Source: an uncultured Candidatus Peribacteria bacterium
Lineage (GTDB): Bacteria > Patescibacteriota > Gracilibacteria > Peribacterales > Peribacteraceae
DNA length: 64,000 nucleotides
Assembly: GCA_964648045.1 (NCBI GenBank)
Contig: CAZYNU010000001.1
Span: forward strand, 17,208 to 81,207
Direction: 5' to 3'
Of the stretch, positions 12,561 through 52,754 are shown piece by piece (the stretch's first letter is position 1; each line of letters opens with the position of its first letter). A model generated the notes under the pieces. That model did not search any database. It was not told the origin of the DNA and worked only from the letters and a program-made list of their open reading frames with translations. The position numbers and the translations under genes are program-made.

Positions 12561-12579
12561 GGCGCGGAGCATAGCAGGG

Positions 12580-14361
12580 TCAGGAACCGAATGTGTAGGC
12601 ATAGGCAGCGACGCCGGGCTTACTAAAGGTGATCTCTACATCATGCTCGCCGTAGTCACCCTTAAAGAGACGGAACAGATCATGACGATCGATCGTCAAC
12701 GGCACGGGGTCGCCGCCGTCGACGCGCACCTCGGCGGCGATGTCGTCGCCCTCGCGCTCGGGACCAAGGACCACATTCACCTCGCCCGCCAGGGCGCGAA
12801 TGCGCAGCGAACCGCTGCCATTCACGAGCACCTGACGTTCGTCCGCCTTCAGCTGCCAACGTCCATCGAGGGCGACAGCATGCAGCGGGATATCGTCTGG
12901 CTCCACGTACTCGGTGGGAGCGTCGGTAGGCAATGGACCACCATTGACCAGCGAATCCCAACCGCGAATACCCAAATAGATTTCAGGCGTCAGCGGCCGC
13001 CGTTCACCAGGTACGTCATCAGCGTCGATGGGCGCCGTAGCGAAGGAATAGCCCGCCTCTAGCAACAGCGACTCGATCGCATCGGCCGTCTCTTGCTCAT
13101 TCCCCTCACCAAAGTGCTGATAGCGCAGCCGGCCATTGGCATCGATCAGGTATTTGGCCGGCCAGTAGTGGTTGGAAAATGACCGCCAGGTGCCGTACGT
13201 ATTGTCTTGAGCAACGGGATAGTGAATACCCAAGCGCTCAACCGCGTCGGCGACGTTGCTGGCATCTTGCTCAAAAGCGAATTCGGGAGTGTGCACACCC
13301 ACAATCAGGAACGGACCGGTTTTAAACCGCTCCCAATAGCCGGCCATGGCCGGCAGCGTACGCAGGCAATTGATGCAGCTGTACGTCCAGAAATCGACAA
13401 GAACCACCTTCCCCTGCAAGGCGCTGGCATTGAGCGGCTGGCTGTTGTGCCATGGACCGAGCTTGACAAAGGCGGGCGCTGGTCCCAGATCAGGCAGGGT
13501 GCCATCGGCATTGGGCGCAACCGGCGGCGACCCAGGAAAAAGACTGTCTTCCAAGCGTTGCGCGATCTCGGCCGGACGCGTGCCAGCCAACCAGAGCTGC
13601 ACGCCAGAGAAGAGATTCCACTCCAACGCCACTGCCGTAAGAAGGAGCAACGCGCCTGCGAGTTTTTTCATGAGCCCTGAATATCGCGTGAGACGATGCA
13701 CGACGTGCGCAGCCAGCTGCCCACCGTAGCCCACGAGCAGCAAAGGCACCGCCGCCCCCAGGGCATACACCGCAAGTGCCAAGAAGGCCGTCGGTCCCGG
13801 CTGTTCGCGCACGAGCGCCAGCGCGAAGCCAAGCGCCGGTCCGGCACACGGCACCCATACCAACCCAAGCGTTAGTCCCACCACGAAGGCCGCCAGTAGG
13901 TTGTCGCCCTGCGTCCGTCGCGTCACCTCCTGAGCATCGGCGCCGATTTGTTGCAAACGAGGCGCCAAGCGACCGCCAATTTCGAGAAGCAGCACGTTAA
14001 CAATCAGTACAGCAACCACAAACATCCAGCCGTCCGGCACAAAGAAGGCGGCACCAAGAGCGGCTAAGATCCAACGCGCCCAGCGACGCTCCGTCAGGAA
14101 ACCGGCCGCGAAGAGCACGAGCACGTCGTAGGTTGCCGTCTGCACGAACGAGGCAAGCGTGACGAACTGCATCAGTAAGACCTGTAGCAAGAAGGTAAAG
14201 CCTACGAAGCCCGCCACCATCCCCGCCACGATCACCAACGGACGCAGACGGCTACGCCCAGCGATACTCACGCCGAGTACAATGGGGACGAGCGGCAGAA
14301 TGCAGGGCAGGAAGATAGTCAGAATTCCCGCCAAGAAGAGTGTGACGAAAAGCGGAAGCAT
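12580..14361 (-). CDS. CcdA/DsbD-type membrane domain fused to a thioredoxin-like domain (DipZ-like)
   Basis: 593 aa. The N-terminal TM domain carries LPCILP and WVPCAGP, followed by VDFWTYSCINC (CxxC redoxin) and a C-terminal beta-rich domain. Confidence 0.85.
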   Translation of the reverse strand: MLPLFVTLFLAGILTIFLPCILPLVPIVLGVSIAGRSRLRPLVIVAGMVAGFVGFTFLLQVLLMQFVTLASFVQTATYDVLVLFAAGFLTERRWARWILAALGAAFFVPDGWMFVVAVLIVNVLLLEIGGRLAPRLQQIGADAQEVTRRTQGDNLLAAFVVGLTLGLVWVPCAGPALGFALALVREQPGPTAFLALAVYALGAAVPLLLVGYGGQLAAHVVHRLTRYSGLMKKLAGALLLLTAVALEWNLFSGVQLWLAGTRPAEIAQRLEDSLFPGSPPVAPNADGTLPDLGPAPAFVKLGPWHNSQPLNASALQGKVVLVDFWTYSCINCLRTLPAMAGYWERFKTGPFLIVGVHTPEFAFEQDASNVADAVERLGIHYPVAQDNTYGTWRSFSNHYWPAKYLIDANGRLRYQHFGEGNEQETADAIESLLLEAGYSFATAPIDADDVPGERRPLTPEIYLGIRGWDSLVNGGPLPTDAPTEYVEPDDIPLHAVALDGRWQLKADERQVLVNGSGSLRIRALAGEVNVVLGPEREGDDIAAEVRVDGGDPVPLTIDRHDLFRLFKGDYGEHDVEITFSKPGVAAYAYTFGS

Positions 14362-29871: not shown

Positions 29872-29949
29872 GGGCCGCCCAGCATAGCAGATGGACGCCA
29901 GCGCCAACTGCCCTTGAGCCGGATCACCGGCAACCTCTATCCTGCGCCT

Positions 29950-30540
29950 ATGATTCTCTCTGATCGAGATATTAAGGAAGAAATCCGCAGCGGCCGCGTG
30001 AAGATCGATAGCGACCAGACGCTGGAGCAGATGCACATCGCTGCCTCCAGCTTGGACCTGCGTCTGGGAAACACCTTCAAGCTCTACGAGCACAGCCGCT
30101 TCGCCATTTTGGATCCCATGAAACCCGAATCGTTCGCGGGCAATATGCGCACCATCGTGGTGCCCTCGGGCGAGCCCTTCATCGTGCAGCCGGGCGAGTT
30201 CGTGCTGGGCGTCACCTGCGAGACTGTGACGGTGCCCGACGATTTGGTGGTGCGTGTGGAAGGACGCAGCTCGCTTGGCCGCCTGGGCATCATCATCCAC
30301 TCCACCGCCGGCTTCGTGGACCCGGGCTTTTCGGGCACGATCACGCTCGAAATCAGCAACTTGAACCGCCTGCCCGTGGCGCTCTACCCCGGCATGCGCA
30401 TCTGCCAGATCGCCTTCGAGAAGATGACCAGCCCGGCCGAGACACCCTACAATAAGAAGGTCGGCAGCAAGTACCAGGGCCAGGTTCTACCGGAAGAGAG
30501 CCGCCTAGCGGCGGATATGGAGTTCATGAAAAAGGTCTGA
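29950..30540 (+). CDS. dcd: dCTP deaminase
   Basis: The start is trimmed to MILSDRDIKEEI. GFVDPGFSGTITLE and the overall Dcd pattern are present. TATCCT (29938-29943) lies 6 nt before the ATG. Confidence 0.9.
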   Translation: MILSDRDIKEEIRSGRVKIDSDQTLEQMHIAASSLDLRLGNTFKLYEHSRFAILDPMKPESFAGNMRTIVVPSGEPFIVQPGEFVLGVTCETVTVPDDLVVRVEGRSSLGRLGIIIHSTAGFVDPGFSGTITLEISNLNRLPVALYPGMRICQIAFEKMTSPAETPYNKKVGSKYQGQVLPEESRLAADMEFMKKV

Positions 30541-31363: not shown

Positions 31364-31569
31364 GACAACTCGCCCATCGGGAACAGGCTCGCAACCACAC
31401 GCCATTTGGAGCCATATTTGGCGTTCAAAAAATTGAAAACATCCGCCAAGCACGAACGTATTTTGACGACAAACACTCTGCCGTTTATCATGAATTTATA
31501 ATGGTATTTTACATCATAGTCAAGTTACGACAGCGAGTGACTTTCTACAGGCATGAAAAAGGGGCAGAG

Positions 31570-32298
31570 ATGACAAAGCAATCGAATCGGGCCGCCGCGA
31601 CACTCTTTACACTCCTCGAAGAGGAAGGCATGCCCGCGGAGGCATGGCAAGTCCTCATCGACAAACCCGAGTGGCGCAGCCTCATCATCGCCCACTGGAA
31701 GGTGCTGGCGCAAAGTGCGGTGGTGACCGAAATCGCCCCGTCATTTAGTCATCACGCACGAGAGATCAACGTGCTGCTCAACCTTGGATATACCGAGGAC
31801 CAGTGCGCCGCGTTCGGTCCGCCGCCAGAGCGCCTGCCGGGCTTTCTCAGTTTCTTCGATCCTGGCTGGAGCCTCGAGCAGCTCCACAAACACTGCCAGC
31901 AGAAGAAGTGGACCTTGTACAACACGCGCTACCAACGCTGCAAGGGTCAGAAGTTCATCAAAAAGGAGGAGGAGCCCGGCTACAGACAAATCCGCATGGA
32001 GGCGATCCCAGGCTCGCGGAGCAAGTCTTTCCACACCCAGAAAATGCTACTGCTCGATACTGAGGAAATTCCACCTGCCCGGCAGGTGATCATGGGCATG
32101 GTCATTCACTATCAACTGGCCGACCAGTGGCTATTTCCGTCGTCGTACGTCCGCTGCCTTGGGAATGACGAAAGCCATATCGTCTGCGTCGGCTGGTTTA
32201 GTTCAAGAGGCCTCAATCTAAACGGCCATTTAGACCACGCCAATCGTTATTCCGATGTGGGCATCGCGCCCGCGAAGAAGTTCACCACGCAGTCCTAA
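31570..32298 (+). CDS. Hypothetical protein (242 aa)
   Basis: The start is trimmed to MTKQSNR after AAAAGGGG (SD-like). GC appears lower than in the neighbours. It has its own terminator and no recognisable motif. Confidence 0.55.
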   Translation: MTKQSNRAAATLFTLLEEEGMPAEAWQVLIDKPEWRSLIIAHWKVLAQSAVVTEIAPSFSHHAREINVLLNLGYTEDQCAAFGPPPERLPGFLSFFDPGWSLEQLHKHCQQKKWTLYNTRYQRCKGQKFIKKEEEPGYRQIRMEAIPGSRSKSFHTQKMLLLDTEEIPPARQVIMGMVIHYQLADQWLFPSSYVRCLGNDESHIVCVGWFSSRGLNLNGHLDHANRYSDVGIAPAKKFTTQS

Positions 32299-37008: not shown

Positions 37009-39870
37009 TCAGTGTGCCTTGCGCGGTCCGCGCGGGGCGGGCTTAGCCGCCGGCTTGGGGGCCGGCGCAGGTGCGGGAGCGGCCGGGACCGACGCGGCGG
37101 CTGCGGAAGCGACGGCGTTAAGCGGCGTCATGTCCACACCGTACTGGGCGGCCACCTGCTCCACCGGCAGGCCGAGCGCCTCCGCAGCGGCTTGGACCAT
37201 CGACTTGCTGACGGGCGGCAGCGGCGCGCCCACGGCCGCCAGCTTGGCGGCGTAGTCGGCGAACTTCGCCTCGTCGTCGGGCGTGAAGGGCGTACCCAGC
37301 ATCTGCTTCTTCTTGAGGGCGTTATACTCGTTGGTCCACATCTCCTTGTCGCGCCAGGCGCGGTACTGCTCAAGCGTCATCTTCTTGGCGCGCGCCTTCT
37401 TCATCTCCTCCTCTTCTTTCTCCTTGGCCTTCGTGGCAACAGCCGCCTGCTGGCGCACAGCCGTGGCGCCCTGCATGGCTTGCGAGGTACCGCTGGCCCA
37501 ACGTGCGATCTTCTCCTCCACCACCTCACGCCTCTCGCTGTAGCGCTCGCGTGAAAGCTTGCGCACCATCTCCTCGCGACCGCTGTCGACCTCGAATTTG
37601 GGCGGCGGCAGCGTCCCCACCGAGAACGGCTTACTGGGAATACCGTCGATCATCAGACGGACGTACGCGTGGTACTTGGGCAAGCTCAAAATGTCTTTCG
37701 TGCTCACCATCTCCTCAAACTGCTGACTCAAAATTTCAGCGTCGTCGCTGCCTACCTGAAAGCTGACCATCGAACCCACGTTGCCGAAGACCGCATCGCG
37801 CAGCGACGTGTTACCCTGGCCGATGATGAGCTGGCCAACGTACTGGTTGGCCATGGTGAGCGCCAAACGGTACTTTCGGGCCTCCGAGAGAATGGTGGCA
37901 AACGACTCGGTAGCGAAGTTCTGGAACTCGTCGACGTACAGGTAGAAATCGCGGCGCTCTTTCTCGGGGATGTCGGCGCGGCTCATGGCGTCGATCTGGA
38001 ATTTGGTCACGAGCATGGAACCCAGGAAGGCCGAGGTATCTTCGCCGATCTTGCCCTTGCTCAGGTTCACGAGGATCACCTTGCCGCTGTCCATGGCCTG
38101 GCGAACGTTGAGCGTGCTGCGCACCTGGCCCACGATGTTGCGCATCACCGGCGTGGACATCAGCTGGCCGACTTTGTTTTGAATGGAAGCCAAGGCCTCG
38201 GTGCGGTACTTGTCGCTCCAGCTGGTGAATTCCGAATCCCAGAAGGTGCGAACCACGGGGTCGGTCACGTTGCTGACGATCTTCGCACGGTAGCCGTCGT
38301 CGGCAAACATGCGCAGGATGCCGAGCATCGACGACCCCTCGTTCTCAAGCAGCGCCAGGAGCGTGTTGCGCAGGATATACTCCATGCGACCCGAGAACGC
38401 CTCCGGCCAGAGCTTGATGAAGACCGACATCAGACCCGAGGCGATGAGCGGACGCTGGCCCGGGTCCGGACACTCGAGCATGTTGAACGAGATCGGCCAG
38501 TCGCGGTCGGCGGGATCGAAGAGGATCACGTCGTTCAGGCGCGACTTGGGCATAAAACGCATGGCGGCGTTGATCAGATCGCCGTGCGGATCCACCACGC
38601 CCACGCCCTTGCCGCCCATAATGTCGCTGAAGATCATGTTTTCCAGCACCGTCGATTTACCCATGCCCGTCTTACCGATGATGTAGACGTGGCGGCGGCG
38701 GTCATCGGGGCGGATGCCGAATTTCAGGCGGTGGCCATGGAACACCGACTCACCAAGCAAGGTAAGGTTCTCCTCGGGATCGGTCACACCGGGAATGGGC
38801 AAGTTCACCGGCGGCTCCAGCTTTTTACTCACCACGCGCTCCAAGTTGGCCGTCTGCACCAGGCTGGTGGGCACATGCCAGAGAGTGGCCAACTCTTCGG
38901 AGGAAAGAGCATAGGGCCGCATCTGCATGCCCAACGGCAGGGCGGCGGCGGTCTGAATCTTCCCTGCCACAAAGCCGTTGCTGGTGGGAATAGAGAACTG
39001 CTGGAAGGTGCTGGCGATCTCTTGAATCTTCTGCATGAGCAGATCGCCCTGCCCCTTGGGCCCAATCACGCTGATGCGCACATTCGCCAAAAAGAGCAGA
39101 CGGTTCACCTTGTCCTTGGCGCCGGCCACTTTGTCTTCCTTCTCGTGCGAGCGACTCGTCTGACCGTCGCTGCCCCCAGCAGCAGGCTTGGCGTCGGGTG
39201 AGGCCGCGGCCGAGAACTTACGGACAATCCCCCACATCTTCCAGCCACCCATCAGGATGCCAAGCGGCCAGAGCACAGCCCGGCGCCAGCCGCGGGCCAA
39301 TTGGATGTCCACGAAGAGCTGGGCGTAGGCACCCCACACGCTAGGCAGGCCCTTCTCAAGCAACGGCAGAAAGCGCAGTGCACGCTTGCGGAACGGCCCT
39401 TGCATGGGCTCGATGACGAGCTGGATGTGGCCGCGCATGCCCGGCAGCGGATAGCGCGCGAGCGCGGCCGTCATGGCCGAGAGCGGGTCCACGTTGGCCC
39501 GGCTCATCATGTCGTCGAACTGCGGGTAGCGCTTAATCGGAAACACTTCCGGATTCCTTAACTTCAGGTCGAGCGCCAGCACCTCCTCCCCTTCTTTGAG
39601 GGCGAACGGCTCTTGGCCAAGCTTCTCAATATCAATATCGGGATACTGCGCGTAGAGCTGGCTCTCGATGAGCGGCGCGGCGCGCGTGGAGCTGCGAATA
39701 TAAAAACCCACCTTCCCCTCGCGCATGCCGATCTCGAGCGAGACCTGACGGTCGGCGCCTTTGAGCGTATGCAGGGCCGCAGCGACGGTCTCCATGTACA
39801 CGGGGCCACGCTCCACGGGATCTTTCTCGTTTGGCAGGCTGGGCCAGAGGTGGAGCACCGTGGCGGTCAC
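37009..39870 (-). CDS. TraD/VirD4/TraG-like P-loop NTPase (orphan T4SS coupling-protein-like), 953 aa
   Basis: Walker A IIGKTGMGKST and Walker B FYLYVDEFQNF. It has an N-terminal non-ATPase domain and a C-terminal K/E then A/P-rich tail. The proposed GTG start at 39870 lies 1 nt after the hrcA stop. Confidence 0.75.
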   Translation of the reverse strand: MTATVLHLWPSLPNEKDPVERGPVYMETVAAALHTLKGADRQVSLEIGMREGKVGFYIRSSTRAAPLIESQLYAQYPDIDIEKLGQEPFALKEGEEVLALDLKLRNPEVFPIKRYPQFDDMMSRANVDPLSAMTAALARYPLPGMRGHIQLVIEPMQGPFRKRALRFLPLLEKGLPSVWGAYAQLFVDIQLARGWRRAVLWPLGILMGGWKMWGIVRKFSAAASPDAKPAAGGSDGQTSRSHEKEDKVAGAKDKVNRLLFLANVRISVIGPKGQGDLLMQKIQEIASTFQQFSIPTSNGFVAGKIQTAAALPLGMQMRPYALSSEELATLWHVPTSLVQTANLERVVSKKLEPPVNLPIPGVTDPEENLTLLGESVFHGHRLKFGIRPDDRRRHVYIIGKTGMGKSTVLENMIFSDIMGGKGVGVVDPHGDLINAAMRFMPKSRLNDVILFDPADRDWPISFNMLECPDPGQRPLIASGLMSVFIKLWPEAFSGRMEYILRNTLLALLENEGSSMLGILRMFADDGYRAKIVSNVTDPVVRTFWDSEFTSWSDKYRTEALASIQNKVGQLMSTPVMRNIVGQVRSTLNVRQAMDSGKVILVNLSKGKIGEDTSAFLGSMLVTKFQIDAMSRADIPEKERRDFYLYVDEFQNFATESFATILSEARKYRLALTMANQYVGQLIIGQGNTSLRDAVFGNVGSMVSFQVGSDDAEILSQQFEEMVSTKDILSLPKYHAYVRLMIDGIPSKPFSVGTLPPPKFEVDSGREEMVRKLSRERYSERREVVEEKIARWASGTSQAMQGATAVRQQAAVATKAKEKEEEEMKKARAKKMTLEQYRAWRDKEMWTNEYNALKKKQMLGTPFTPDDEAKFADYAAKLAAVGAPLPPVSKSMVQAAAEALGLPVEQVAAQYGVDMTPLNAVASAAAASVPAAPAPAPAPKPAAKPAPRGPRKAH

Positions 39871-39871
39871 T

Positions 39872-40585
39872 TTAGGAGGCGGAGAGGAAGTCGGCCACCA
39901 GCTTGAGGGCCGCCGTATTGTAGGCGTAATCCATGCGCATCGGCCCCAGCACACCCAGGAAACCCTTGTGGCCGCGCAGGGAATAGGGCGTGACGAGCAG
40001 GCTGCAGCTCTGAATCTGAGGGAGAAGATGCTCCTCGCCGATGTAGGTGCGGACTCCATCGCCGGGCGGCGCCTGGTCGAGGATCTTGGTCAGCTTGGAC
40101 TCGAGCACCTCCACCACGCCGCTGGCAAGCAACGGGTCCAGTTGGAACTCCGGCTGGCGGAGCGTCTGCGCCAAGCCCAGGAAATAGACACCCGGCTTGT
40201 GCGGCACCGTCGCAAAGGCCACGTTGGCAATCATATGTGAGAGCAGAGCGACGGCCTCGTAGGCTCGCTCCTGATCTTTCTGCTTAAAATACTGATCCTT
40301 GAGTTCGGCAAATTTCTTCTCCACCGTCTTCAAGTGCGGCGAGGGTTGCAGAGCGGTCTCCTCGGCATAAAAGCGATACCCCTTGGCGGTCGGTACGCGG
40401 CCCGCCGAAACGTGCGGCTGCTCCAAAAACCCCTCCTCGCCCAGGAAGCGCATCTCATTACGAATGGTGGCGCCCGATAGCGAAAAGCGGCTGTGCCGCT
40501 GCAATTCCTGGGATCCGACGGGAATCGCGGTCTTAATGAATTGGTCGATGATGGCCACGAGCAGCTTGGCCTGGCGACTGTTCAT
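39872..40585 (-). CDS. hrcA: Heat-inducible transcription repressor HrcA (short form, 237 aa)
   Basis: The start is trimmed to MNSRQAKLLVAIIDQF. PVGSQEL ... SGATIRNEM is the HrcA winged-helix N-terminus. A CIRCE element sits immediately upstream. Confidence 0.85.
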   Translation of the reverse strand: MNSRQAKLLVAIIDQFIKTAIPVGSQELQRHSRFSLSGATIRNEMRFLGEEGFLEQPHVSAGRVPTAKGYRFYAEETALQPSPHLKTVEKKFAELKDQYFKQKDQERAYEAVALLSHMIANVAFATVPHKPGVYFLGLAQTLRQPEFQLDPLLASGVVEVLESKLTKILDQAPPGDGVRTYIGEEHLLPQIQSCSLLVTPYSLRGHKGFLGVLGPMRMDYAYNTAALKLVADFLSAS

Positions 40586-40597
40586 ATCCTTTCCAGT

Positions 40598-40624
40598 ATA
40601 GCACTCTAGTGCATCGAGTGCCAT
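40598..40624. promoter_or_regulatory. CIRCE operator (ATAGCACTC-N9-GAGTGCCAT)
   Basis: Matches the TTAGCACTC-N9-GAGTGCTAA consensus at 15 of 18 arm positions. It overlaps a TATACT -10 (40595-40600, minus strand) that lies 9 nt upstream of the hrcA ATG. Confidence 0.7.
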
Positions 40625-40892
40625 GCAGAATCGCCAGTTTTTGCCCTTTTGACAGCCCTATGACCACGAACGACAACCACGTACACTGGCGGCGCGCCCG
40701 CATCACTCTTGGAGAAAATCGTATGCATCGACTGTGGGAACTGTGGGACGAAGCCCTTTCACTGGGCGAAAAAATTGCCACCTGGGTGAAAAATGCCCTC
40801 TGGCGACCACCGCCTCCACCTGCAGGTGTCTGACAAAAACTGACCAGCCCCGGCTGGATCCAGCCCCGAAAGGGGCCTTTCTTGACGGTACG

Positions 40893-40918
40893 AAAAAGGC
40901 GCCTCGCGGCGCCTTTTT
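40893..40918 (-). terminator. Intrinsic terminator downstream of rpmE (symmetric, A-run/T-run on both sides)
   Basis: AAAAA-GGCGCC-TCGC-GGCGCC-TTTTT. Confidence 0.65.
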
Positions 40919-40938
40919 GAGGTCGTTGGGATGCGCGC

Positions 40939-41154
40939 TCAGGCGGGCTTGGAAGCCGACTGGAGCTTGCGGAAACGCTCGATGCGACCGCCCTTCGTGT
41001 TCGTCTGCTTCTTGCCCGTGTACTGAGGGTGGCAAGCGCGGCAGGCTTCGACCGTCTGCGTCTGCACGGTGGAAGGGATCATGTAGACGGCCTGGCACGT
41101 CGTGCAGGTGGTCTTGGCGTCTTGGTGCATCTGAGGGTGGATCGCGGTCTGCAT
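40939..41154 (-). CDS. rpmE: 50S ribosomal protein L31 (Zn-binding type)
   Basis: 71 aa. MQTAIHPQ..., CTTC ... CRACHPQYTGK. Confidence 0.9.
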   Translation of the reverse strand: MQTAIHPQMHQDAKTTCTTCQAVYMIPSTVQTQTVEACRACHPQYTGKKQTNTKGGRIERFRKLQSASKPA

Positions 41155-41219
41155 AGGAGTGAGGGGATTCTACTGATCAAAAGTGGGAATGCAAGCTATT
41201 CTTGACCTTCCGGTCGGGC

Positions 41220-43895: not shown

Positions 43896-43992
43896 AGGGA
43901 AAGTGGGTGACCGCGGCACTCTACCAGAGCGCGGCCGGGCACGGGAAGAAACCGCTTTTGAATCCGGAATATTGGCCTAAAAGCTGCCTGAC

Positions 43993-46900
43993 TCAAGGAA
44001 AGACCCGCACGATCACCTGCGTAGCCGACTCACGGCGGAAATCAGTGGTGGCGTTCGTGAGGCCCCAATCGTCCACGTATGTATTGCGTGAGTACATCGA
44101 CTTACGCACATTACTGACGGTATTCCAAGTAATGGAGCCCTCGGCAAAGACCGTCTCGATGAGCTTGTCGTAAAACTTCTCCTCGTCCTTGATGTAGCCA
44201 CTCAATTCCACAAGACCATCGTGAAGCCGATGCTTGGCGTTACTGCGGTCGCTCCAGGCCACCTCATAGGGGAAGATATTCAGAATGCGCCACAGGCGAT
44301 CGGACGTGCCGCCGCTGCGGTCGTTTTTAAGGACGTGCCGAGCCATGCGCTTCCAGTCGTCGCCCAGATCACCCGAGAATATATTGGGGCGGATCTTGAG
44401 CCACTCGGCACCGGGGTTCTTGCCGAGATCAGAGAAGTTCAGCTGCGTCGGATCGGCTACGTCTTTGGCCTTGATGCGGTAGTACTGCAAGCGGTGACCG
44501 CCGTTGTCCTCGTCTGGCTGATGAGTCTTGGAACCGAAGTTATTAATCTCTTTGGAATCGTTTTTTGGATCAAAGGACGGGTGGCGAGCGAGGATGATCC
44601 ACGCCTCGCCCTTCGGATCATTGAAACGTCCGATGCTGACGCGCTCTTTGGAACCAGGTGAGACCGGCACCGAGACAAGCTCCTTCCCGTTCATCACGGC
44701 CTTACGAACGTCGAAGCGCCAGCCAGCAATCTTCTCGGCGTGGGCGGTGGCATCTTTCTCAAGCCCGTCACGCAGTGCGCCGGCCCCCTTCTCGTTGAGC
44801 ATCTTTTCAAATTCAGCCACGCGCTTAATGGAGAGAGCCGTCCTCACGGCCGTCATCTCTTTCTCGCTGAGACGATCAAGGAGGGGCAGAAGCTCTTTCT
44901 TCACGAACGGCGGAAAATTTTTCTCCCAGTAGTCACCAGCCTTCAAACGCTCATACTCGGCAGCCGTCGCCTTGTGCTTGGCCAGCGACTGGTACACATC
45001 CATACAAACGAAGTAGGCATTCGTACCGAACTTCTCACACTCTTTTTGGATATCTCGGTCCTTCGCCATCGTGAGCAATTTCCCCTCAATGATCTCATGC
45101 AAGCGCATGGCCTGCTCGTAGCTGTAGCGCGTCTCTTTCAACTGCTCCTCCAACTTGGGCTTCAGCTCCTTCACGCCCTCCAACAGATCTTTCACGTTGC
45201 CGACCAGCTGCGGGACCATGATCGGCTTGTAGTCGCGATCAAAGGCAGGGAATCCATTGCGTCCCATAGCTTGTACCGGACGGTAGATCAGAACTTTCTC
45301 CAGCCCCTTCATGCGATCGCCTTCATTGGCACGAATGTACTCGGCCTTCAGTTGGGCCACCTCCTCGGAACGCTTGGTCTCGGCCGACTTGGCGAGTTCG
45401 TCCTGCGTGCGGCGTTCAGCCTCGATAGGCTTGAGGTGCTCCTCCAGGCCAGCGGCGGAACCGGGATACTGTTTGCAAAAATCCGCAAAGGAGACGGTAC
45501 GCGCCTCGCTGTAGGTCACCGAGTTGATTTGCTGGCGACCGCGATAGTAGAACTGACGCTGGGCACCGCGAATCTCCACCGTCCACGAAGCGCGATCACC
45601 ACTAGGACAGATGAAGGAGTAGAGCTGCAGATCGCCGGTGTTGGTGCGCGACTGAAGCAAGAGAAGCTGCGGAGCTGAGTCCATACCGCGCCGCACGAGT
45701 GAGGCGAGGTAGTCCACCGTCTGGCGGCCGTTGATACCGGCGTCCATATCGAGCAGGCCGGGCAGCTCGCCTTGCACCAGGAACGGTGCCCCCTTGGTCT
45801 CGAAGCGATCTTTCACGTTGGCGGCCCACACCTTCTGCGCGCCCACCTTACCCTTGAGCACAGCCTCGCTGAGCTTGGCACGAATATTGCGCAACTGCTG
45901 ACTCGTCACCATCTCGCGAGAGGAAGCCATCTGTTGAATGGCGGTATACGTCTCGGCCAGCAGGGCGTCGGCTACATCTTTCGAGAGCGTTTCGCTCAAA
46001 TCTTTGGTGGCGGCGTGCACCTGCGCCATCAACTGAAAGAGTTCGTCACGAATACCGATGGTCGGCACGTTGAGCGACTGCGCGCCCTTGAAGATGTTGA
46101 TGCCGGGCCCCTTCCACTCTTTGTAGAGCGAGTCGAAATCTTGGCCGAGCGCATCCATGATACTCAGCTTCTGTTCCACCTTGAGGGCTTTGGCCAACTC
46201 GGCGCCGTAGTCCTCGGGTTTCATGTCCGGATAGGCCGAGCGAGACACGGCGCGATTGCGGCGCATGGCGTCGGCAATGGTCTGCACCAAACCGGCCTGC
46301 ATGAACTCGGTCGACGGGGCATGCTCACCGTTGTAGTTGGCCAGATCACCAAGCCACACCTTGCGGTCGTAGACGCCGAGATAGTTGGCCAAACTCACAT
46401 CCTTAGCTGTCTCGGTAAGCAGTTCGCGGTAGGCCTGGAAGGCCTTAAAGAGCGGATCGGTCACCTTCTCCGCACCACCCGCCTTGGACGCCAAACCGTC
46501 AACGTAGTCGCGAGCCTTCTTCAACCCCGGTGCGTCCTTGCCGGTACCTGCCAGGGCGTAGCGCACGAGGTTGTCGTTGCGTACGGCCTTGCCGCCGTCG
46601 CGCGTGGCCAGCTCTACACCACCCAGCGTGTCGCCCGCTTCGAATGCACCGGCAGCCTTAAGACCGGCTTCCAGTTCCCGCTCCTGCCCGGCCAAGGAGG
46701 TAACGTGGATGTGCAACGTGACTGACTGCGTCTTGGCCCACTCCTTCACATCGGACACTTTGCGCAGCTCCCAGAGCTTGAGCGCAATCGGACTCTCCTT
46801 TCCCCCCTTGGCCACGGCCTGGTCGACGCGCGCGTTCCAATCGTCGAGGGTGTGATAGTAGTCGCCACTCAGCATGCCCGACGGCGAGGCCAAGTTGGCC

Positions 46901-48603
46901 GGGCGCGTCATGTAGTTGCGGAAGTCACGATCGGGATCGACGGTAGAGACGCCAGTGATCTCGGCCAACTCCTCGAGGCCGCCGATGGCGAAGTCACCGG
47001 AGACGGTGGCGAGCAGATTCCCCACCACGTCTTTGGTGGCCGACTCGGGAATGTTCTTGTCGGCCCAGGTGCAGATTTTCTCGATGGTGTCTTGCGAGGC
47101 GAAGGCCACGGCCATGCCGATGGCAAAGAGCACATAGGGATTCTTGGGCGCCGCCTTCAGAATGCCGGCAACGCGCAGCGCGTTGCCCGCCGCCAGAGCC
47201 GCCTTCGACGTGGCCTTACCCACCATGATGAACGACGCGAACTGCATCGTGGCCTTCACCTTGTTGGGCGATTCGTGCAGGTAGAGCCCCCAGAGCAGCA
47301 CGGTCACGGGGCTTTCGATGGCCAGAAGTTCGCCCCAGAACTTGGGGCCGAGCGGCATGCGATTGAAAGCACCAAAAAGCTTGCCGAGCGTTTCGACCGG
47401 CATGCCCACCTTGCCCATCTGGGCGCAGACCTGCTCCCAACCCTTGATGACACCCATGCGCGCGGCGGGGGCGAGATCGCGCAGGATCGGGATTTTTTGG
47501 AGCGTCCGTTTGTTCACCGCTTCCCAGCTCAAGTATTCCTCGAGCACCTCCTCGGCCGCCTCGTTGATGATGACACCCATGTAGAGAAGCCACTGGTCAT
47601 TGTCGACTTGCGGCTGCTTGATAACCTTGCGCTCGTAGAGATCGCGATTCACCAGGAAGGTAACAATGCCCTCCACCTGGTTCTTGCCCACCTCGCCGCC
47701 CAGATTGCGACGCATGGCTAGAGCCACGCGGTTGGAAACCGTCATGCGCTCCTCGTTGAGCTTGGCGTACTGGGCGAGCACCGCGGGCTTCGTACGAGTG
47801 GCGACATCGCGCGCCTGCGAGGGCGGTAGCACCGGGCGGGCGAGCGAGGCGATGAATTGGTGTAATTCCGCCTCGGTGCAGTCGGCGGGGAATCCCATCT
47901 CCTTCAGGAAGATCTCGCGGCCGGCCGTGCGGCAGTCGATCTCGTATTTCTGGCGGCGCTTGGCGAAATTGAGCAGCGCCTCGCCGGCGGTCGCCACGGG
48001 ATCGGGCGGCGGCTGGCGGAGCGCCGGCGCGAGGGCGGCGCGCATCGCCTTGGCCTCGTCCGACAGAGCCTCGTATTCTTTAGTGAGTTCGGGCTTGGCG
48101 CCGGCGGGGGGCGGCAACGGCTTACCCTCACCGAACAGGAAGCGTACGGCCTCCTCGGCCTCGGGCCCCTTGGCGCCGGAGTAGGCGGAGACGCTCGCCA
48201 CGTTGTCGGCCATCACCTTGGCGTAGGCCGTCTCGTGCGCGATGGCCGCCTTCACGATGGGAAGCGAAAGGAGGAGCTCAATCTTCTTTTTGGCCGTTTC
48301 GCTGTCTTTTTGTTCGAGCGAAGTGAGCAGCTGTTCGATCTGGCCGAACATCTCTTCCAGCTTGGCCGCGTCCATGTGACCGGCAGCCTGAAGGGCATCC
48401 CACGTCGTCTTAAGTCCGTCGAGCTGGCCTCGAGTAGCCACAAACGGCGCCGACTGCGTGCGACCACGCGAGAGGAAGTCGTGGAACACTTTCAGGTCGC
48501 CCGTGAGCACCTCCGGCTGCTTGGCCAGTTTTTCCTGCAGGCGCAGGCGCTGGGCCACGAACGAGTCGGGTGCGGCGGCCGGTGCGGCTTTGGGTGTTTC
48601 CAC
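43993..48603 (-). CDS. Giant hypothetical protein (1536 aa) with an internal hydrophobic cluster
   Basis: Long uninterrupted ORF with normal-looking amino-acid composition and no motif I recognise. Hydrophobic segments lie around aa 430-510. Confidence 0.7.
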   Translation of the reverse strand: METPKAAPAAAPDSFVAQRLRLQEKLAKQPEVLTGDLKVFHDFLSRGRTQSAPFVATRGQLDGLKTTWDALQAAGHMDAAKLEEMFGQIEQLLTSLEQKDSETAKKKIELLLSLPIVKAAIAHETAYAKVMADNVASVSAYSGAKGPEAEEAVRFLFGEGKPLPPPAGAKPELTKEYEALSDEAKAMRAALAPALRQPPPDPVATAGEALLNFAKRRQKYEIDCRTAGREIFLKEMGFPADCTEAELHQFIASLARPVLPPSQARDVATRTKPAVLAQYAKLNEERMTVSNRVALAMRRNLGGEVGKNQVEGIVTFLVNRDLYERKVIKQPQVDNDQWLLYMGVIINEAAEEVLEEYLSWEAVNKRTLQKIPILRDLAPAARMGVIKGWEQVCAQMGKVGMPVETLGKLFGAFNRMPLGPKFWGELLAIESPVTVLLWGLYLHESPNKVKATMQFASFIMVGKATSKAALAAGNALRVAGILKAAPKNPYVLFAIGMAVAFASQDTIEKICTWADKNIPESATKDVVGNLLATVSGDFAIGGLEELAEITGVSTVDPDRDFRNYMTRPANLASPSGMLSGDYYHTLDDWNARVDQAVAKGGKESPIALKLWELRKVSDVKEWAKTQSVTLHIHVTSLAGQERELEAGLKAAGAFEAGDTLGGVELATRDGGKAVRNDNLVRYALAGTGKDAPGLKKARDYVDGLASKAGGAEKVTDPLFKAFQAYRELLTETAKDVSLANYLGVYDRKVWLGDLANYNGEHAPSTEFMQAGLVQTIADAMRRNRAVSRSAYPDMKPEDYGAELAKALKVEQKLSIMDALGQDFDSLYKEWKGPGINIFKGAQSLNVPTIGIRDELFQLMAQVHAATKDLSETLSKDVADALLAETYTAIQQMASSREMVTSQQLRNIRAKLSEAVLKGKVGAQKVWAANVKDRFETKGAPFLVQGELPGLLDMDAGINGRQTVDYLASLVRRGMDSAPQLLLLQSRTNTGDLQLYSFICPSGDRASWTVEIRGAQRQFYYRGRQQINSVTYSEARTVSFADFCKQYPGSAAGLEEHLKPIEAERRTQDELAKSAETKRSEEVAQLKAEYIRANEGDRMKGLEKVLIYRPVQAMGRNGFPAFDRDYKPIMVPQLVGNVKDLLEGVKELKPKLEEQLKETRYSYEQAMRLHEIIEGKLLTMAKDRDIQKECEKFGTNAYFVCMDVYQSLAKHKATAAEYERLKAGDYWEKNFPPFVKKELLPLLDRLSEKEMTAVRTALSIKRVAEFEKMLNEKGAGALRDGLEKDATAHAEKIAGWRFDVRKAVMNGKELVSVPVSPGSKERVSIGRFNDPKGEAWIILARHPSFDPKNDSKEINNFGSKTHQPDEDNGGHRLQYYRIKAKDVADPTQLNFSDLGKNPGAEWLKIRPNIFSGDLGDDWKRMARHVLKNDRSGGTSDRLWRILNIFPYEVAWSDRSNAKHRLHDGLVELSGYIKDEEKFYDKLIETVFAEGSITWNTVSNVRKSMYSRNTYVDDWGLTNATTDFRRESATQVIVRVFP

Positions 48604-48652
48604 GAGCGGGTATGTGTGCGTTGGTCGGATTCACTCCCCCCTCCCATCGTGC

Positions 48653-51115
48653 TCACTTACGCTTGATCTTGGGATGCGCGCCGGCCTTGAGGGCGGCCTC
48701 CACATCGGCCTTCACGTCGCCCTCACTGCGACCGTCCACCTTAATGTCGAGCTTCACCGCCAGGTCGGCGATGGCGCGGGCATCCATCTTGCCCAGATCG
48801 ATGCGGGCGGGGTCAATCTCGGTCTCGGCAGTGCGGCCGCTCGCGTCACCTTCAACACGAGCCTCATCGACTACGACGTCATCGGCAGCTTCCAGAGCTT
48901 TGATCCTCTCTTCCAATTCCAAGATGCGCGCCCGGTCTGCCTCTCGCTCTTTGCGGAGCGTGGCCAATTCAGCCTTTGCCTCAGCCATGGCTTCAGTCGG
49001 CGTCTGGCCCGGCTTCAGGAAGCCTTCCAGGTAACCAATCAGACTGCCGCGTTTCACCGCACGTGCGGGGCCAGAAATGAGCGTGCGATCGAAGAGACTT
49101 GGAATACCGTTGGCAATGCGAGAGAACGGACGGCGGAAGCCGATACGGTTCTCACCCAGGCGAGCGAAGCCGCCGCGACCACCAAGTGCATAAGCAGTTG
49201 CCAAACCGGCGGCGCCGAACACGAGCCACTTCAAGAAGTCATCGTCTTCGCCCTTCTGGTTACCGGCGGCGATGTCGGCCTCCACCTTCTTGTCTTGGTG
49301 GGCCTGGATGTTCTCCATGACCAATCCTTCCAGCTTGCCCATGGCACGGGCATACGCATTCCAGTGGCCACGCATCTGCAGGTAGAGCGCCACGTAGGCG
49401 GCAAGCATGCGCGGACCGTCTTTGGGATCAAGATCGGCAATATCGGCCGCAGTCAGACCCTTGGTGACGAATTGCTCCACTAAGGCAGGGTCTGCCTTCT
49501 TGCCCAGCAGCACCTCGGCGCTGGTCTTCTTACGCAAGCTCTCAAGCATCACCAGATCGGTCTCGAATTCTTTGGCCGGACCTTCCACCTCGGCACGGCA
49601 CTTTTCGATATTCGCCTTCACCGAGGTCATCTTGGCCTCGTGCTTCGCCTTGGCGCCGGGCCAGCGCTTATCCTCTTCAAGATCTTTCCAATCTTTGGCG
49701 CTGTTCAAGTCGAAATCCTCGGGCAGACCCATCGCCTTCAGGAGACCGGCCATGTTGTCCTTCGCGTACTCACTGCCCTCCTTTGTGGAGAGGACCTTCT
49801 TCATGCTGAAGTCGAGTGTATCGGCCACGGTGTCGCCCAAAGTGGAACGTGTGACACCAACTGCCACTTTGCGCGGGCCGTTCACCACCATCGAGCGAAC
49901 GCCGCCGCGGTACTTGGCAAGCAGATTGAGCACCATGGCGGCGCGGGCAGAGGCCTGCTCCGTCCAAAGCTGCTCCAGCTTCATGTCCCAACGCTTCGTG
50001 CTGAGAAGGTGATCTTTCTCGAAGCCCTTAGCGGGACGCCCCGGGCGCGGCCCCAAGACCATGTCGAAGTGACCGCGGAAATTTTCGGTGAGGGCATCCA
50101 CCGTGCTGCCCATGATTTTCTCGCCTTCAGCAGCGGCCGCGTTGGCCAAGGGAATGCTTGGCGCCTTAGCCACAGCTGCAGGCTTTTGATACTGGCGTTG
50201 CCCCTCGGGAATCGTGAACTCCTCAATATCCGCGATGTTCTCCAGGCCGGTATGGCGCAGGAGCGATTCCAATTCCACACCAAGCGACGCTCCGACCTTC
50301 TGAAGAGCCGCGACCTCGCCCCGGAATTTCTCGGCCAGGGCATTCTTCTCTTCTTGAGTCACCGTCCCCTTTTTGAGAAGCAGACGCAACTCCACCTCGT
50401 ACTCGTTCCCCTTCTTAAGAATTAGGCTGTTGTTCTGGCGCAGCGCCCGATCGATCAGGTCGCCGTAGAGGGCATTCGTCAGAACGGGCAAAGGATTCAC
50501 AGCCTCCTTAAGGGCCTCCGTCGCACGCTGAAGCGCGGTGATATCGTTGGTGCCCCACAGCGCCAAGCGGGCGGCGGCGGCGGTATTGAATTTCTTCAAT
50601 TGGTCTTGCACTGCCTTCTCCAAAGCCGGATCAGCCGCGACGCCATAGGCCGCATGCTGCTTCTTCAACACCAGGTAACGATCGATCATACCGAAGTTCC
50701 GCTCAATCAGACCCGGTAGGACCGTGTAAAACGCCTCGCGTCCGGAGGCATATTTCTCCTCGTCGGTCGGCACCGCACGCGTCTTGTCGTTGACTTGCTG
50801 CAAGCGCAGCAGCTGCGCCTGAGTTTGGTTGATCACCGAGAGCGCTTCAATGGTACGCTGATCCTTACCGTCAAACTTGGCCCGCATGTCGCGGAGTAAG
50901 TCGGCATGACGCTGATCGACGGCCGTCTTCGGATCGATCTTCTGGCCCTCGACATAGCCGCGAGCTGTATTGGGGCCACTCCCACCGAAGAGTCGACGCG
51001 CTTCCGTAAACTCCGGAAATGCCTTACGTAAATCGTCGATATCCGCCGGGAGGGGAACCTCCTTGGGGTTGCGGGTATTTTCGACGTCTTTCCGAGCGGG
51101 CAATTTCTCGTCCAT
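48653..51115 (-). CDS. Large hypothetical protein (820 aa), helix-rich with one hydrophobic segment
   Basis: Uninterrupted ORF. FLKWLVFGAAGLATAYALGG is the only hydrophobic stretch. The C-terminus is coiled-coil-like (AELATLRKEREADRARILELEERIKALE). Confidence 0.7.
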   Translation of the reverse strand: MDEKLPARKDVENTRNPKEVPLPADIDDLRKAFPEFTEARRLFGGSGPNTARGYVEGQKIDPKTAVDQRHADLLRDMRAKFDGKDQRTIEALSVINQTQAQLLRLQQVNDKTRAVPTDEEKYASGREAFYTVLPGLIERNFGMIDRYLVLKKQHAAYGVAADPALEKAVQDQLKKFNTAAAARLALWGTNDITALQRATEALKEAVNPLPVLTNALYGDLIDRALRQNNSLILKKGNEYEVELRLLLKKGTVTQEEKNALAEKFRGEVAALQKVGASLGVELESLLRHTGLENIADIEEFTIPEGQRQYQKPAAVAKAPSIPLANAAAAEGEKIMGSTVDALTENFRGHFDMVLGPRPGRPAKGFEKDHLLSTKRWDMKLEQLWTEQASARAAMVLNLLAKYRGGVRSMVVNGPRKVAVGVTRSTLGDTVADTLDFSMKKVLSTKEGSEYAKDNMAGLLKAMGLPEDFDLNSAKDWKDLEEDKRWPGAKAKHEAKMTSVKANIEKCRAEVEGPAKEFETDLVMLESLRKKTSAEVLLGKKADPALVEQFVTKGLTAADIADLDPKDGPRMLAAYVALYLQMRGHWNAYARAMGKLEGLVMENIQAHQDKKVEADIAAGNQKGEDDDFLKWLVFGAAGLATAYALGGRGGFARLGENRIGFRRPFSRIANGIPSLFDRTLISGPARAVKRGSLIGYLEGFLKPGQTPTEAMAEAKAELATLRKEREADRARILELEERIKALEAADDVVVDEARVEGDASGRTAETEIDPARIDLGKMDARAIADLAVKLDIKVDGRSEGDVKADVEAALKAGAHPKIKRK

Positions 51116-51162
51116 ATGAAGGGGTGGGTGTGGATATTGTGAGCAGTGGCAGAGGCGGAGGC

Positions 51163-51615
51163 TTACACGCCGCCGTCAATACCGCCGTACGATTCAAAGG
51201 CACCACCGGCGTCTCCGCCCGTAATACCCGGCGAGGCCAGCCTCTGAGTAGCCTTACCAAAACGACTGAACCAATTCAGGCCCGTGCCAGTAGCGGCACC
51301 CTCGGTGGCTCCGAAGGCATTGAAGAGATAGGGCGTACCAAAATAGAGCGCGGCAGCAATGGCGGCCGCACGGCCGATCTTACCCACCGTACCACCGCCG
51401 AGCAGGCCTTCGACAGGCTTGAACGTGAGCCACTTCCAGAGCGTTCCCAGCACGGGGCGCTCCTGGCTGTAGATGTACTCGGAGAACCAACCTTTCTGCT
51501 GGGCCGTACGAACATCCTCAACGGAGTTAGAAAGTTCGCGGCGATCCGTTGGGCGGTTGGAACGACCATTAGCGGGAAGTTCAGGGGCCGTGTTCTGGTC
51601 GGAGGCGCGTGACAT
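51163..51615 (-). CDS. Gly/Ala-rich small membrane protein (150 aa)
   Basis: GLLGGGTVGKIGRAAAIAAALYFGTPYLF hydrophobic core. Lies 14 nt downstream of the preceding gene. Confidence 0.55.
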   Translation of the reverse strand: MSRASDQNTAPELPANGRSNRPTDRRELSNSVEDVRTAQQKGWFSEYIYSQERPVLGTLWKWLTFKPVEGLLGGGTVGKIGRAAAIAAALYFGTPYLFNAFGATEGAATGTGLNWFSRFGKATQRLASPGITGGDAGGAFESYGGIDGGV

Positions 51616-51629
51616 AGGAGGAGGGAGAA

Positions 51630-52043
51630 TTAGCGGTTAAAGGAAAGGAGCAAACCGTGGCGAAGACTGGAAAGATCGGCGACCTCTTGCAGATCTTGTC
51701 CCGACTTCACGGCCGGCAACGCTTCGGCAATGAGCACGCGGAAGACATCGGGGCCCCAGGCAAAAGCCAGTTCCATGACGTCGTCTTTGGAGATGGACGA
51801 CAGGTCCACGCTCTCGGCCATGTCGATGAGTTCGTCGGCCGTAAACGTCTGCGACTTGGCCTTTTCTTGAAAGGCATGGAGGGCCGGATTCTTCAGATGC
51901 ATCTGGCGCAGTCGGCTTTCGCGGTGCTGATCGGTATCGGTAAACGTGAGCGTCTCGCGCTCGACTGTAGCGTGCGCCTGCACGTCGGCAGGCAAGGCAT
52001 CGAAGAGCTTCTGTTCGGCGTCGGTAAGGTGGAGAGTGGGCAT
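51630..52043 (-). CDS. Hypothetical protein (137 aa), first gene of the operon
   Basis: The start is trimmed to MPTLHLTDAEQKLF. Soluble and acidic, with no motif. Confidence 0.55.
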   Translation of the reverse strand: MPTLHLTDAEQKLFDALPADVQAHATVERETLTFTDTDQHRESRLRQMHLKNPALHAFQEKAKSQTFTADELIDMAESVDLSSISKDDVMELAFAWGPDVFRVLIAEALPAVKSGQDLQEVADLSSLRHGLLLSFNR

Positions 52044-52085
52044 AGCAGAGAGAAGTGTGGCGGGAAGAAAGACTGAAATCCATTC

Positions 52086-52094
52086 ATTGTACCA
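52086..52094 (-). promoter_or_regulatory. Extended -10 element TGGTACAAT
   Basis: On the minus strand, 42 nt upstream of ATG 52043, in an AT-rich divergent region. Confidence 0.35.
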
Positions 52095-52253
52095 AATTTC
52101 GTCTCTTTTCTCAATCAAGACTCCGGAATGCCAGGCACGTCGACCGATTGACTTCCATAAAAAAGAGGATATTTTCTGCGCGTTTTGTCACCCGTTCCTT
52201 CACCGCAGAGGTCTCCCGTGAGAATTATTCGCTGTTACGTCCATCCCAAGACC

Positions 52254-52754
52254 ATGGCCTCCCGCGACGGCCATGACGACCCGCTGGGCGAAGTGAGTTT
52301 CTTCCAGGCGTTCGTCGAACGCTACCCCAACGACGTCGATATCACTCTCGTAGAGTGGCCCACGGCCGAGACGCCAAAGGCTCCAACGGCTAAAGGTAAT
52401 CGCACGCTTCGCGGCGGCATCGGCAACGTGCCTGCCCCCCTGCTGAAGCCGAAGCTCGTGGATGTGCTGATCACCCACCTGACCCAGGCCAAGCAGCCAG
52501 CGCTCGTCCTCCCCTCCTACCACCTCTCGAGCACCGAGCTCGACCGCCTCGTCGCCTTCTGCCTGGAGCAGGGCCACATCCCGTTCATCTGCAGCGAGAT
52601 GATGCTCAGCGCCGAGAAGCGCGCCACCGACGTCTACCTGTGGCGCGAGATGGACCGCCTAATCGCCAAGATCCGACCGATCCAGCCGACCTGCAACGGC
52701 CAGTGCCCGAAGAAGCCGAAGAATAAACGGGAGTCCACCCTCATCCCCGCCTGA
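52254..52754 (+). CDS. Hypothetical protein
   Basis: 166 aa from MASRDGHDD with no motif. Followed by a strong terminator. Confidence 0.5.
   Translation: MASRDGHDDPLGEVSFFQAFVERYPNDVDITLVEWPTAETPKAPTAKGNRTLRGGIGNVPAPLLKPKLVDVLITHLTQAKQPALVLPSYHLSSTELDRLVAFCLEQGHIPFICSEMMLSAEKRATDVYLWREMDRLIAKIRPIQPTCNGQCPKKPKNKRESTLIPA

Follow-up and report, generated by a model that had tools for sequence, protein, structure and literature searches.

The 64,000-nucleotide (nt) window analysed here, a stretch of contig CAZYNU010000001.1 (assembly GCA_964648045.1) from an uncultured Candidatus Peribacteria bacterium with a G+C content of about 61%, carries on its minus strand four consecutive genes, designated here A, B, C and D, which according to our comparisons form an operon-like module specific to Peregrinibacteria (class Peribacteria) and to relatives with a reassigned genetic code. 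For none of the four proteins was there a link to a described family or system or to a solved fold, and no publication on the module was found, so that we rate it as lying, in all appearance, outside the known kinds. Its products most likely make up an assembly of several proteins that is anchored in the cytoplasmic membrane of the cell itself, insertion being read from hydropathy alone, and it is possible, though short of probable, that this complex would act at the cell envelope with variable arms turned towards a partner that changes, for instance a host cell or a phage. The genes and the parts of their products on which the argument turns are the following (sizes in amino acids, aa; L004 is the homologous locus of a close relative, and other related loci carry similar numbers).

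51630-52043, minus strand: gene A, 137 aa counted from the ATG common to all homologues; product soluble, without a hydrophobic segment
51163-51615, minus strand: gene B, 150 aa; basic product whose N-terminal part is charged, followed by one hydrophobic segment (residues about 80-101) and by a tail rich in Gly/Ala(/Pro)
48653-51115, minus strand: gene C, 820 aa; product mostly charged, without a signal peptide
49181-49237, minus strand: single hydrophobic segment of C, residues 627-645, FLKWLVFGAAGLATAYALG
48656-48889, minus strand: conserved C-terminal tail of C, residues 743-820, 87% identical to L004
43993-48603, minus strand: gene D, 1536 aa; product without a signal peptide and without a P-loop
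46159-47511, minus strand: family-wide conserved core of D, residues about 365-815
47083-47340, minus strand: hydrophobic helix cluster of D, residues 422-507, three short helices with conserved polar loops between them
43996-45906, minus strand: highly diverged distal arm of D, residues 900-1536

An earlier reading of this DNA, made from the sequence alone (the sequence-only reading), had described four same-strand open reading frames (ORFs) with gaps of 14, 47 and 49 nt between them, and the coordinates and sizes were reproduced. Comparison with locus L003, of another close relative, gave ratios of nonsynonymous to synonymous divergence (dN/dS) of about 0.12 for A, 0.16 for B, 0.16 for C and 0.19 for D; values of about 0.11-0.19 across all four genes indicate purifying selection, and by this measure the four ORFs are real genes. 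Spurious ORFs of a G+C-rich genome were considered as an alternative and excluded, the homologues being under purifying selection.

The order A-B-C-D was found in nine of 12 distinct related loci that were read (L003, L004, L001, L006, L007, L009, L012, L013 and L016), which stem from divergent Peregrinibacteria, and the product sizes in seven of these loci are as follows.

L003: A 139, B 147, C 816, D 1544 aa
L001: A 135, B 169, C 791, D 1607 aa
L006: A 154, B 263, C 1210, D 2035 aa
L007: A 138, B 173, C 1441, D 2470 aa
L012: A 145, B 271, C 1271, D 1556 aa
L013: A 135, B 234, C 898, D 1568 aa
L016: A 137, B 211, C 783, D 1006 aa

The earlier proposal that the four genes form a unit, to be checked by their co-occurrence in the same order in related genomes, is therefore borne out, since order and rough sizes are kept across very divergent genomes whatever the neighbours. 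The same cannot be said of its description of the operon as running straight into gyrA, which holds in the window and in L003 and L004, the two closest relatives and the only other loci where gyrA directly follows D, while the downstream neighbour differs in seven other loci. Ribosomal protein genes, the gene of RNase J, toxin-antitoxin genes, a giant downstream ORF (in L016) and others adjoin the module elsewhere; as the neighbouring genes differ between loci, the adjacency of gyrA is taken as incidental, and a functional link of the module to gyrA was dropped.

Departures from the simple order are themselves informative of how the module is built. L009 (2151-13363) contains a tandem triplet, A-B-C-A-B-C-D, and L004 (513-13445) has tandem D genes, A-B-C-D2-D, where D2 is a protein of 1280 aa without the last 250 or so residues which over residues 1-900 is nearer than its neighbour D to the D of the window. 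These arrangements point to a modular build of the type [A-B-C]n-[D]m. In a further variant, L014, proteins of 678 and 775 aa replace A-B-C. The most distant loci, L016 from forest soil and L017 from marine water, encode a protein of about 1000 aa ending just past the D core, followed by a giant ORF. Pfam recognises neither of the giant ORFs (L016:12220-21021, more than 2934 aa; L017:6891-14918, 2675 aa); they have strongly hydrophobic helices in pairs, a segment in common with C proteins and a further one in common with the D C-terminus, a composition that suggests gene fission or fusion within the module.

As to the range of the family, the names carried by close homologues of the window's proteins are Candidatus Peribacteraceae or Peregrinibacteria, which form a lineage within the candidate phyla radiation. 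In word-indexed searches over 5.8 billion proteins, seven relatives of D and four of C came up, and an exhaustive profile search with D residues 215-1050 gave 60 representative clusters of 130-2470 aa, mostly of about 1000-2000 aa, in which all members bearing names are again Peribacteraceae or Peregrinibacteria. A profile scan of genome contigs with the close D alignment found four loci only. No match to D was obtained by tblastn against 50,697 phage and 72,556 plasmid records, nor by a pattern scan of IMG/VR; a scan of JGI metagenomes for D also found none, and is uninformative, as JGI-derived members exist. One distant D-like gene, L015:3788-6790 (GCA_964521495.1, 39% G+C), contains 31 in-frame TGA codons, two of which stand at strongly conserved glycine columns of the D family, and its database protein had been translated with TGA as tryptophan. 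As in-frame TGA falls on conserved glycine columns, the contig probably derives from a lineage reading TGA as glycine (code 25), for example Gracilibacteria or Absconditabacteria, both of them sisters to Peregrinibacteria (PMC8080830).

The four products had been described as unplaceable in any family, with profile searches and structure prediction proposed as a check, and that description has stood: Pfam, NCBIfam, PHROGs, PADLOC, the PDB and Foldseek gave no convincing match. Scans of all four proteins against Pfam and NCBIfam found nothing, PADLOC (PADLOC-DB 2.0) was equally blank for A-D, PHROGs gave nothing below an expectation value (E) of 0.05 for any of the four, and C and D had no match among PDB sequences. 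Among 36 diverse D proteins there was no family match in Pfam or NCBIfam and a single weak match to LmuB in PADLOC (E 6e-4), and Pfam scans of these 36 and of eight C relatives produced two sub-threshold matches only (DUF4381 and RuvA_C). The D-core profile found nothing below E 0.15 among PDB sequences. Foldseek comparison of both AlphaFold2 models of D with the PDB gave no significant fold match either, the best values being E 0.11 (template modelling score, TM, 0.16 or less) and E 0.32, and against BFVD the best was E 0.2. The P-loop, said earlier to be missing, is indeed absent from A-D when sought as the Walker A motif [AG]xxxxGK[ST], and no NTPase family of Pfam or NCBIfam was found in the module proteins, which speaks against dynamin/mitofusin-like remodellers, SMC/Wadjet systems, the EssC protein of type VII secretion systems and other NTPase machines. 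Polymorphic toxin domains of the Rhs, LXG, CdiA or MafB type were found neither in D as a whole, nor in its C-terminal 247 aa, nor in the 36 relatives, and the window has no ORF between D and gyrA that could be a candidate immunity gene.

The only hint of a type III secretion protein concerns A, whose profile has as its best match among PDB sequences a 64-residue stretch of EspA at E 0.0045; residues about 74-125 of A, with the motif VDLSSISKDDVMELAFAWGP..., align there with residues 7-70 of EspA of E. coli (YDLGSMSKDDVIDLFNKLGV...). With the Pfam model of EspA no match to any of six A proteins appeared, although values of E up to 10 were admitted, and injectisome genes were found neither in the 64-kb window nor in any related locus read. 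A relationship of A to EspA was set aside, the match being at the level of a motif only and without Pfam support.

Within D, the conserved core is recognised by the motifs ESPxTVLL..YLHxSxNKxKA..FASF; PKxP..FA; WxDxxIPD...K; VDPxxD..YL; DWN; W..RQAV; ATxD....RND; and YxRxxWLG, the first of which fall within the hydrophobic helix cluster. The three short helices of the cluster are followed by a weak fourth one at residues about 526-548, and a distant member of the family has four clear hydrophobic helices. The third is the strongest in the family average, with Kyte-Doolittle hydropathy (KD) of 1.48 over 19 residues and 2.4 over 11, and in the family the loop preceding it is positive and the stretch following it negative. 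A first AlphaFold2 model of D from seven sequences was poor (predicted local distance difference test score, pLDDT, 54). A model of residues 300-830 built from 29 diverse core sequences is all-helical, with pLDDT 73 and a predicted template modelling score (pTM) of 0.68; within it residues 584-810 form an all-helical domain whose pLDDT exceeds 85, and the hydrophobic region has pLDDT 57-77. Beyond the core lies a beta-rich domain (residues about 925-1040), for which all matches in the fold search were insignificant.

The C family has a single hydrophobic segment two-thirds to three-quarters along the protein, and in relatives it reaches KD 2.09-2.26 (L006 and L016, the highest in L016). In the window genome it stands between an acidic stretch on its N side and an Arg-rich one on its C side, and most C members likewise have an acidic or neutral flank before the segment and an Arg/Lys-rich flank after it. 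The C protein of the window ends in the basic residues KIKRK, and such a short basic tail closes nearly all C-like proteins (KIKRK, KGIKK, RRRFRR, KGRSR). A resemblance of the C tail to a helix-extension-helix or Rho_N-like domain was set aside for want of Pfam support, and C and D were rejected as paralogues, there being no detectable similarity between them. Neither protein has internal repeats, and their cysteine content is 0.1-0.5%. B, called a Gly/Ala-rich membrane peptide in the sequence-only reading, has 16% Gly and 12% Ala with one hydrophobic segment, and keeps its architecture in all cassettes, as we call the copies of the module, and not its sequence; elsewhere in the family the segment has KD 2.35-2.8 (L006, L012), and the positive residues of B lie mostly on its N side. 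A has an isoelectric point of 4.5-4.9 in four of six cassettes, 6.2 in L006 and 9.7 in L007.

The pattern of divergence between the window and its two closest relatives is uneven along the module, as the amino-acid identities and the position of one block make clear.

Window against L004: GyrA 96%; D 74% (D2 79%); A 39%; B no detectable similarity; C last 78 residues only (87%)
Window against L003: GyrA 91%; D 64%; A 70%; B 74%; C 67%
48880-51977, minus strand: block without DNA similarity to L004, covering most of A, all of B and residues 1-745 of C

A, B and C thus differ more from L004, although that genome is the closer of the two. Around the block, DNA identity to L004 is 73% in the upstream flank, 79% in the C tail and D, and 89% in gyrA; since the block itself has no DNA similarity while its flanks and gyrA align, these 3.1 kb have been replaced between relatives whose GyrA proteins are 96% identical. 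Among distant cassettes A shares 23-39% identity, as against the 70% between the window and L003. The proportion of nonsynonymous differences (pN) in the distal arm of D is 0.12-0.34 against both D paralogues of L004, at least 0.25 in most of the sub-windows compared, and the last 250 or so residues of D are missing in two close homologues. In residues 416-515 of D the nonsynonymous divergence (dN) is 0.025, equal to that of GyrA, 0.025. Synonymous divergence in the distal D region exceeds that of gyrA, which suggests older or imported alleles. Amino-acid change runs about eight times faster than in GyrA. The module divides sharply, as the alignments indicate, into a conserved set, D residues 1-900 with the C tail, and a variable set of the distal D arm, the bulk of C, B and A.

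From this division it would be logical to propose the following arrangement. D may be the conserved backbone, in which hydrophobic helices with polar residues (ESP...HxSxNKxK) would stand beside the all-helical domain, with long helical arms on both sides. C and B would be membrane partners with a single segment each, and A a small soluble cytoplasmic partner, adaptor or chaperone. The C tail remained with D when the block was replaced and is for this reason the likely contact between the two proteins, and the shared movement of A, B and most of C makes it probable that these bind each other. The variable parts would then co-evolve internally while facing a changing external partner, which is also what the fast-changing arms suggest. 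Fast divergence, block swapping and tandem duplication lead us to propose a role at the envelope, in contact with host or partner cells or phages, in a clade whose members are believed to live attached to other cells. For Peribacteria and the related predatory Vampirococcus, an investment in large proteins of the surface or membrane has been described, to which a role in attachment is ascribed (PMC4736985, PMC8080830), and with the lifestyle proposed for the clade in the same studies (PMC4736985, PMC8080830) the most parsimonious reading is one of envelope contact, with host cells or with phages.

A number of observations weigh against it. The sequence-only reading had proposed a membrane-embedded assembly from internal hydrophobic clusters in the two large proteins: the clusters are where it placed them, and across the family B and C have one segment each, which in other members is clearly strong enough for a transmembrane one, and D three or four helices, but in the window genome the clusters are only moderately hydrophobic (maximum KD over 19 residues 1.2-1.4) and marginal as membrane segments. 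C and D were confirmed to consist of long charged stretches without signal peptides, and indeed none of A-D has a signal peptide. By the positive-inside rule the 625-aa N-terminal domain of C is predicted to lie outside, as the basic flank comes after the hydrophobic segment, and no known export route would bring it there. For D, three helices would put the C-terminal arm outside and four would keep both arms inside, and the distant member has four. Scans of the 36 diverse D and the eight C proteins turned up no domain of adhesion, enzymatic or wall-binding type. Finally, A is soluble and yet belongs to the variable block, so that the variation may reflect internal co-evolution or a cytoplasmic conflict and not surface exposure. 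Among the functions suggested at the outset, a cell-surface apparatus, membrane remodelling and a secretion scaffold are indistinguishable on present data.

Other explanations draw on much of the same evidence. That the set is exported like a translocon or effectors, A serving as chaperone of C and/or D, the proteins leaving by a non-Sec path and their hairpins inserting in the membrane of host or prey as a feeding pore or an anchor, seems to us unlikely, in spite of several features that agree with it: conserved internal hydrophobic hairpins in long helical proteins that have no signal peptides, a first gene encoding a small protein that is acidic in most cassettes, the basic tail of nearly all C-like proteins, arms that diverge fast and are swapped, as expected of host-facing effectors, the weak match (E 0.0045) between the A profile and 64 residues of EspA, a filament protein of type III secretion, a gene for a TrwB/VirD4-like coupling protein 4 kb away, and the habit of the sister lineage Vampirococcus, which empties the cytoplasm of its prey (PMC8080830). 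However, secretion machinery was found in or beside the module at no locus read, syntenic L003 has no coupling-protein gene, the resemblance to EspA amounts to a short motif which the Pfam model supports in none of six A proteins, B resembles a resident membrane protein, and the hydrophobic core is the most conserved part of D, as would be expected of a resident machine. The same variability could be that of a polymorphic toxin-type locus, with D as carrier of a conserved N-terminal part and a variable C-terminal toxin, and A, B and C as export or partner proteins. The 900 N-terminal residues of D are conserved, its C-terminal domain is variable or missing and the small upstream partner genes co-vary with it, but no toxin, Rhs, LXG or CdiA-type domain was detected, no candidate immunity gene stands between D and gyrA in the window, and the variable region is long and partly helical instead of a compact terminal domain; we consider this very improbable.

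Fast evolution, block replacement and tandem duplication would also suit a membrane-based system of defence or exclusion against phages or competing elements, and so would the varying genomic position of the module and the AbiEii, HepT/MNT or HigB/YafQ-like genes adjoining it in L006, L007 and L012. Against this stand the blank PADLOC result for A-D, with one weak LmuB match (E 6e-4) among 36 D proteins, the failure to find a nuclease, ATPase, protease or other known effector domain in the scanned proteins, and the housekeeping-gene surroundings in the window, L001, L003 and L013; toxin-antitoxin modules may be frequent in these genomes, which makes adjacency at three loci weak. A defence role thus appears to us quite unlikely, and we grade in the same way, as a rather improbable one, a scaffold with housekeeping duties at the cytoplasmic side of the membrane (cytoskeleton-like, or concerned with division, membrane shaping or chromosome tethering), with both arms of D and the bulk of C in the cytoplasm. 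The latter would explain the lack of signal peptides, the soluble partner A, the long, charged and helical character of the proteins and the four helices of the distant D member, which would place both arms on one side; the basic C tail, together with a motif of loose resemblance to helix-extension-helix nucleic-acid-binding modules, might make contact with DNA or lipid, and the module is co-directional with gyrA in the window. But the adjacency of gyrA is not conserved, GTPase and ATPase motifs are missing, and amino-acid change about eight times that of GyrA together with the wholesale replacement of half the module would be unusual for a housekeeping function.

The neighbouring genes mentioned above deserve a short description. 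The coupling-protein ORF (37009-40059, minus strand, 1016 aa; Pfam TrwB_AAD_bind, T4SS-DNA_transf and TraG-D_C) overlaps with its 5' end the hrcA ORF (39872-40624). Between hrcA and the YdjC gene, syntenic L003 has small ORFs only, and for this reason the coupling-protein gene looks like an insertion in the window genome; it is also missing from all other cassettes read, and the window showed no further genes of type IV secretion. As a mark of type IV secretion substrates, the basic C-terminal tails of the C proteins are at most suggestive. The toxin-antitoxin or abortive-infection-type genes lie at L006:3212-4878, L007:14330-15938 and L012:1140-1931, and their proximity to the module may be a coincidence.

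Among systems of known function, the operons of type III translocators (ipgC-ipaB-ipaC, lcrH-yopB-yopD and EspA/EspB/EspD) resemble the module in that a gene for a small acidic protein stands beside those of larger helical proteins, which have no Sec signals, contain internal hydrophobic hairpins and diverge fast. They differ in that A has no TPR or other chaperone signature, there is no profile match to translocator families, C and D are two to five times larger, and B has no counterpart; we know of no injectisome reported for this clade. Chlamydial inclusion membrane (Inc) proteins and the hairpin-anchored proteins of the reticulon/atlastin type also carry paired short hydrophobic helices inside a long soluble protein, both arms of which could share one side of the membrane, but they have no sequence or fold relation to the module, which has no GTPase domain. 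As the hydrophobic region of the module is strongly conserved and rich in polar residues, it looks functional and not like a simple anchor.

In the P1 operon of Mycoplasma pneumoniae (ORF4-P1-ORF6), a small gene is followed by those of two very large envelope proteins in a wall-poor, reduced and host-attached bacterium, with variation based on recombination. The module is like it in having a small gene followed by genes of very large proteins, and has no sequence similarity to it; P1 and P40/P90 possess signal peptides as well as anchors at the C-terminus. Defence systems that are anchored in the membrane, Zorya among them, share with the module the multi-gene composition, a membrane protein with a very long helical tail and fast evolution, but no MotA/MotB-like or PADLOC model matches the module and it is without an effector domain. 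The giant proteins of epibionts of the candidate phyla radiation, such as the cysteine-rich ones of Peribacteria and the giants of Vampirococcus, are comparable in clade, proposed role in cell contact, large size and variation between strains (PMC4736985, PMC8080830). Mostly, though, these giants carry signal peptides and adhesion domains or are rich in cysteine, whereas C and D have neither trait and belong to a fixed set of four genes.

The surroundings of the module in the window contain two further features.

52114-52086, minus strand: promoter-like site, sigma-70-like, with TTGAGA, a 17-nt spacer and the extended -10 TGgTACAAT
43920-43992, minus strand: spacer between D and gyrA, without a terminator-like site and without a significant fold

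The promoter-like site lies about 40 nt upstream of the ATG of A and is the best in 12 kb scanned, where it is the sole match in 10 of 12 positions. With its extended -10 and the low G+C content of the divergent intergenic region upstream of A (44% against 61% for the window), it agrees with the AT-rich divergent promoter region described in the sequence-only reading. From the shared ATG, A begins with MPTLHLT...; an alternative upstream TTG start would give a protein of 162 aa. The earlier remark that no terminator separates D from gyrA also held, as no terminator-like site was found in the spacer and it folds no better than shuffled sequence (z 0.26); the gyrA ORF has a GTG 73 nt and its next ATG 97 nt from the D stop.

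Divergent from the promoter region is a 189-aa ORF (52185-52754, plus strand) without Pfam match, whose homologue adjoins gene A in L004. Other sizeable ORFs of the window without Pfam match are those at 27742-30300 (minus strand, 852 aa), 31501-32298 (plus strand, 265 aa) and 11460-12602 (minus strand, 380 aa). In L003 a 71-aa gene of L31 lies between gyrA and hrcA, and by synteny a short rpmE is expected at 40625-41219 of the window.

How the bacteria that make up the candidate phyla radiation attach to hosts and exploit them is largely unexplained, and most of their lineage-specific genes have no assigned function. Against this background the module takes 8 kb of a genome that is presumably of roughly 1 Mb, a size of 1.3 Mb being typical for the clade (PMC8080830, PMC6851277). 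It is noteworthy as it is conserved across the whole clade, its D core can be modelled, and it undergoes the allele swapping typical of loci that face hosts or phages. Operons without assigned function are common in these genomes, and the role suggested for this one is a proposal. We see it as a testable candidate for an interaction apparatus, and as a new protein family and fold for structural work; should it be a cytoplasmic scaffold or a defence system instead, it would still be a new kind of either. We may even suggest, as a doubtful extension of the envelope reading, a machine of a kind not recognised before and specific to the Peregrinibacteria-Gracilibacteria-Absconditabacteria clade, in which giant helical proteins, resident, exported or both, whose hydrophobic hairpins are lined with polar residues, would build a contact or a conduit to the host membrane and swapped A-B-C and D-arm cassettes would set host specificity. 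If this is true, the machine would belong to the means by which these epibionts fasten on other bacteria or feed on them.

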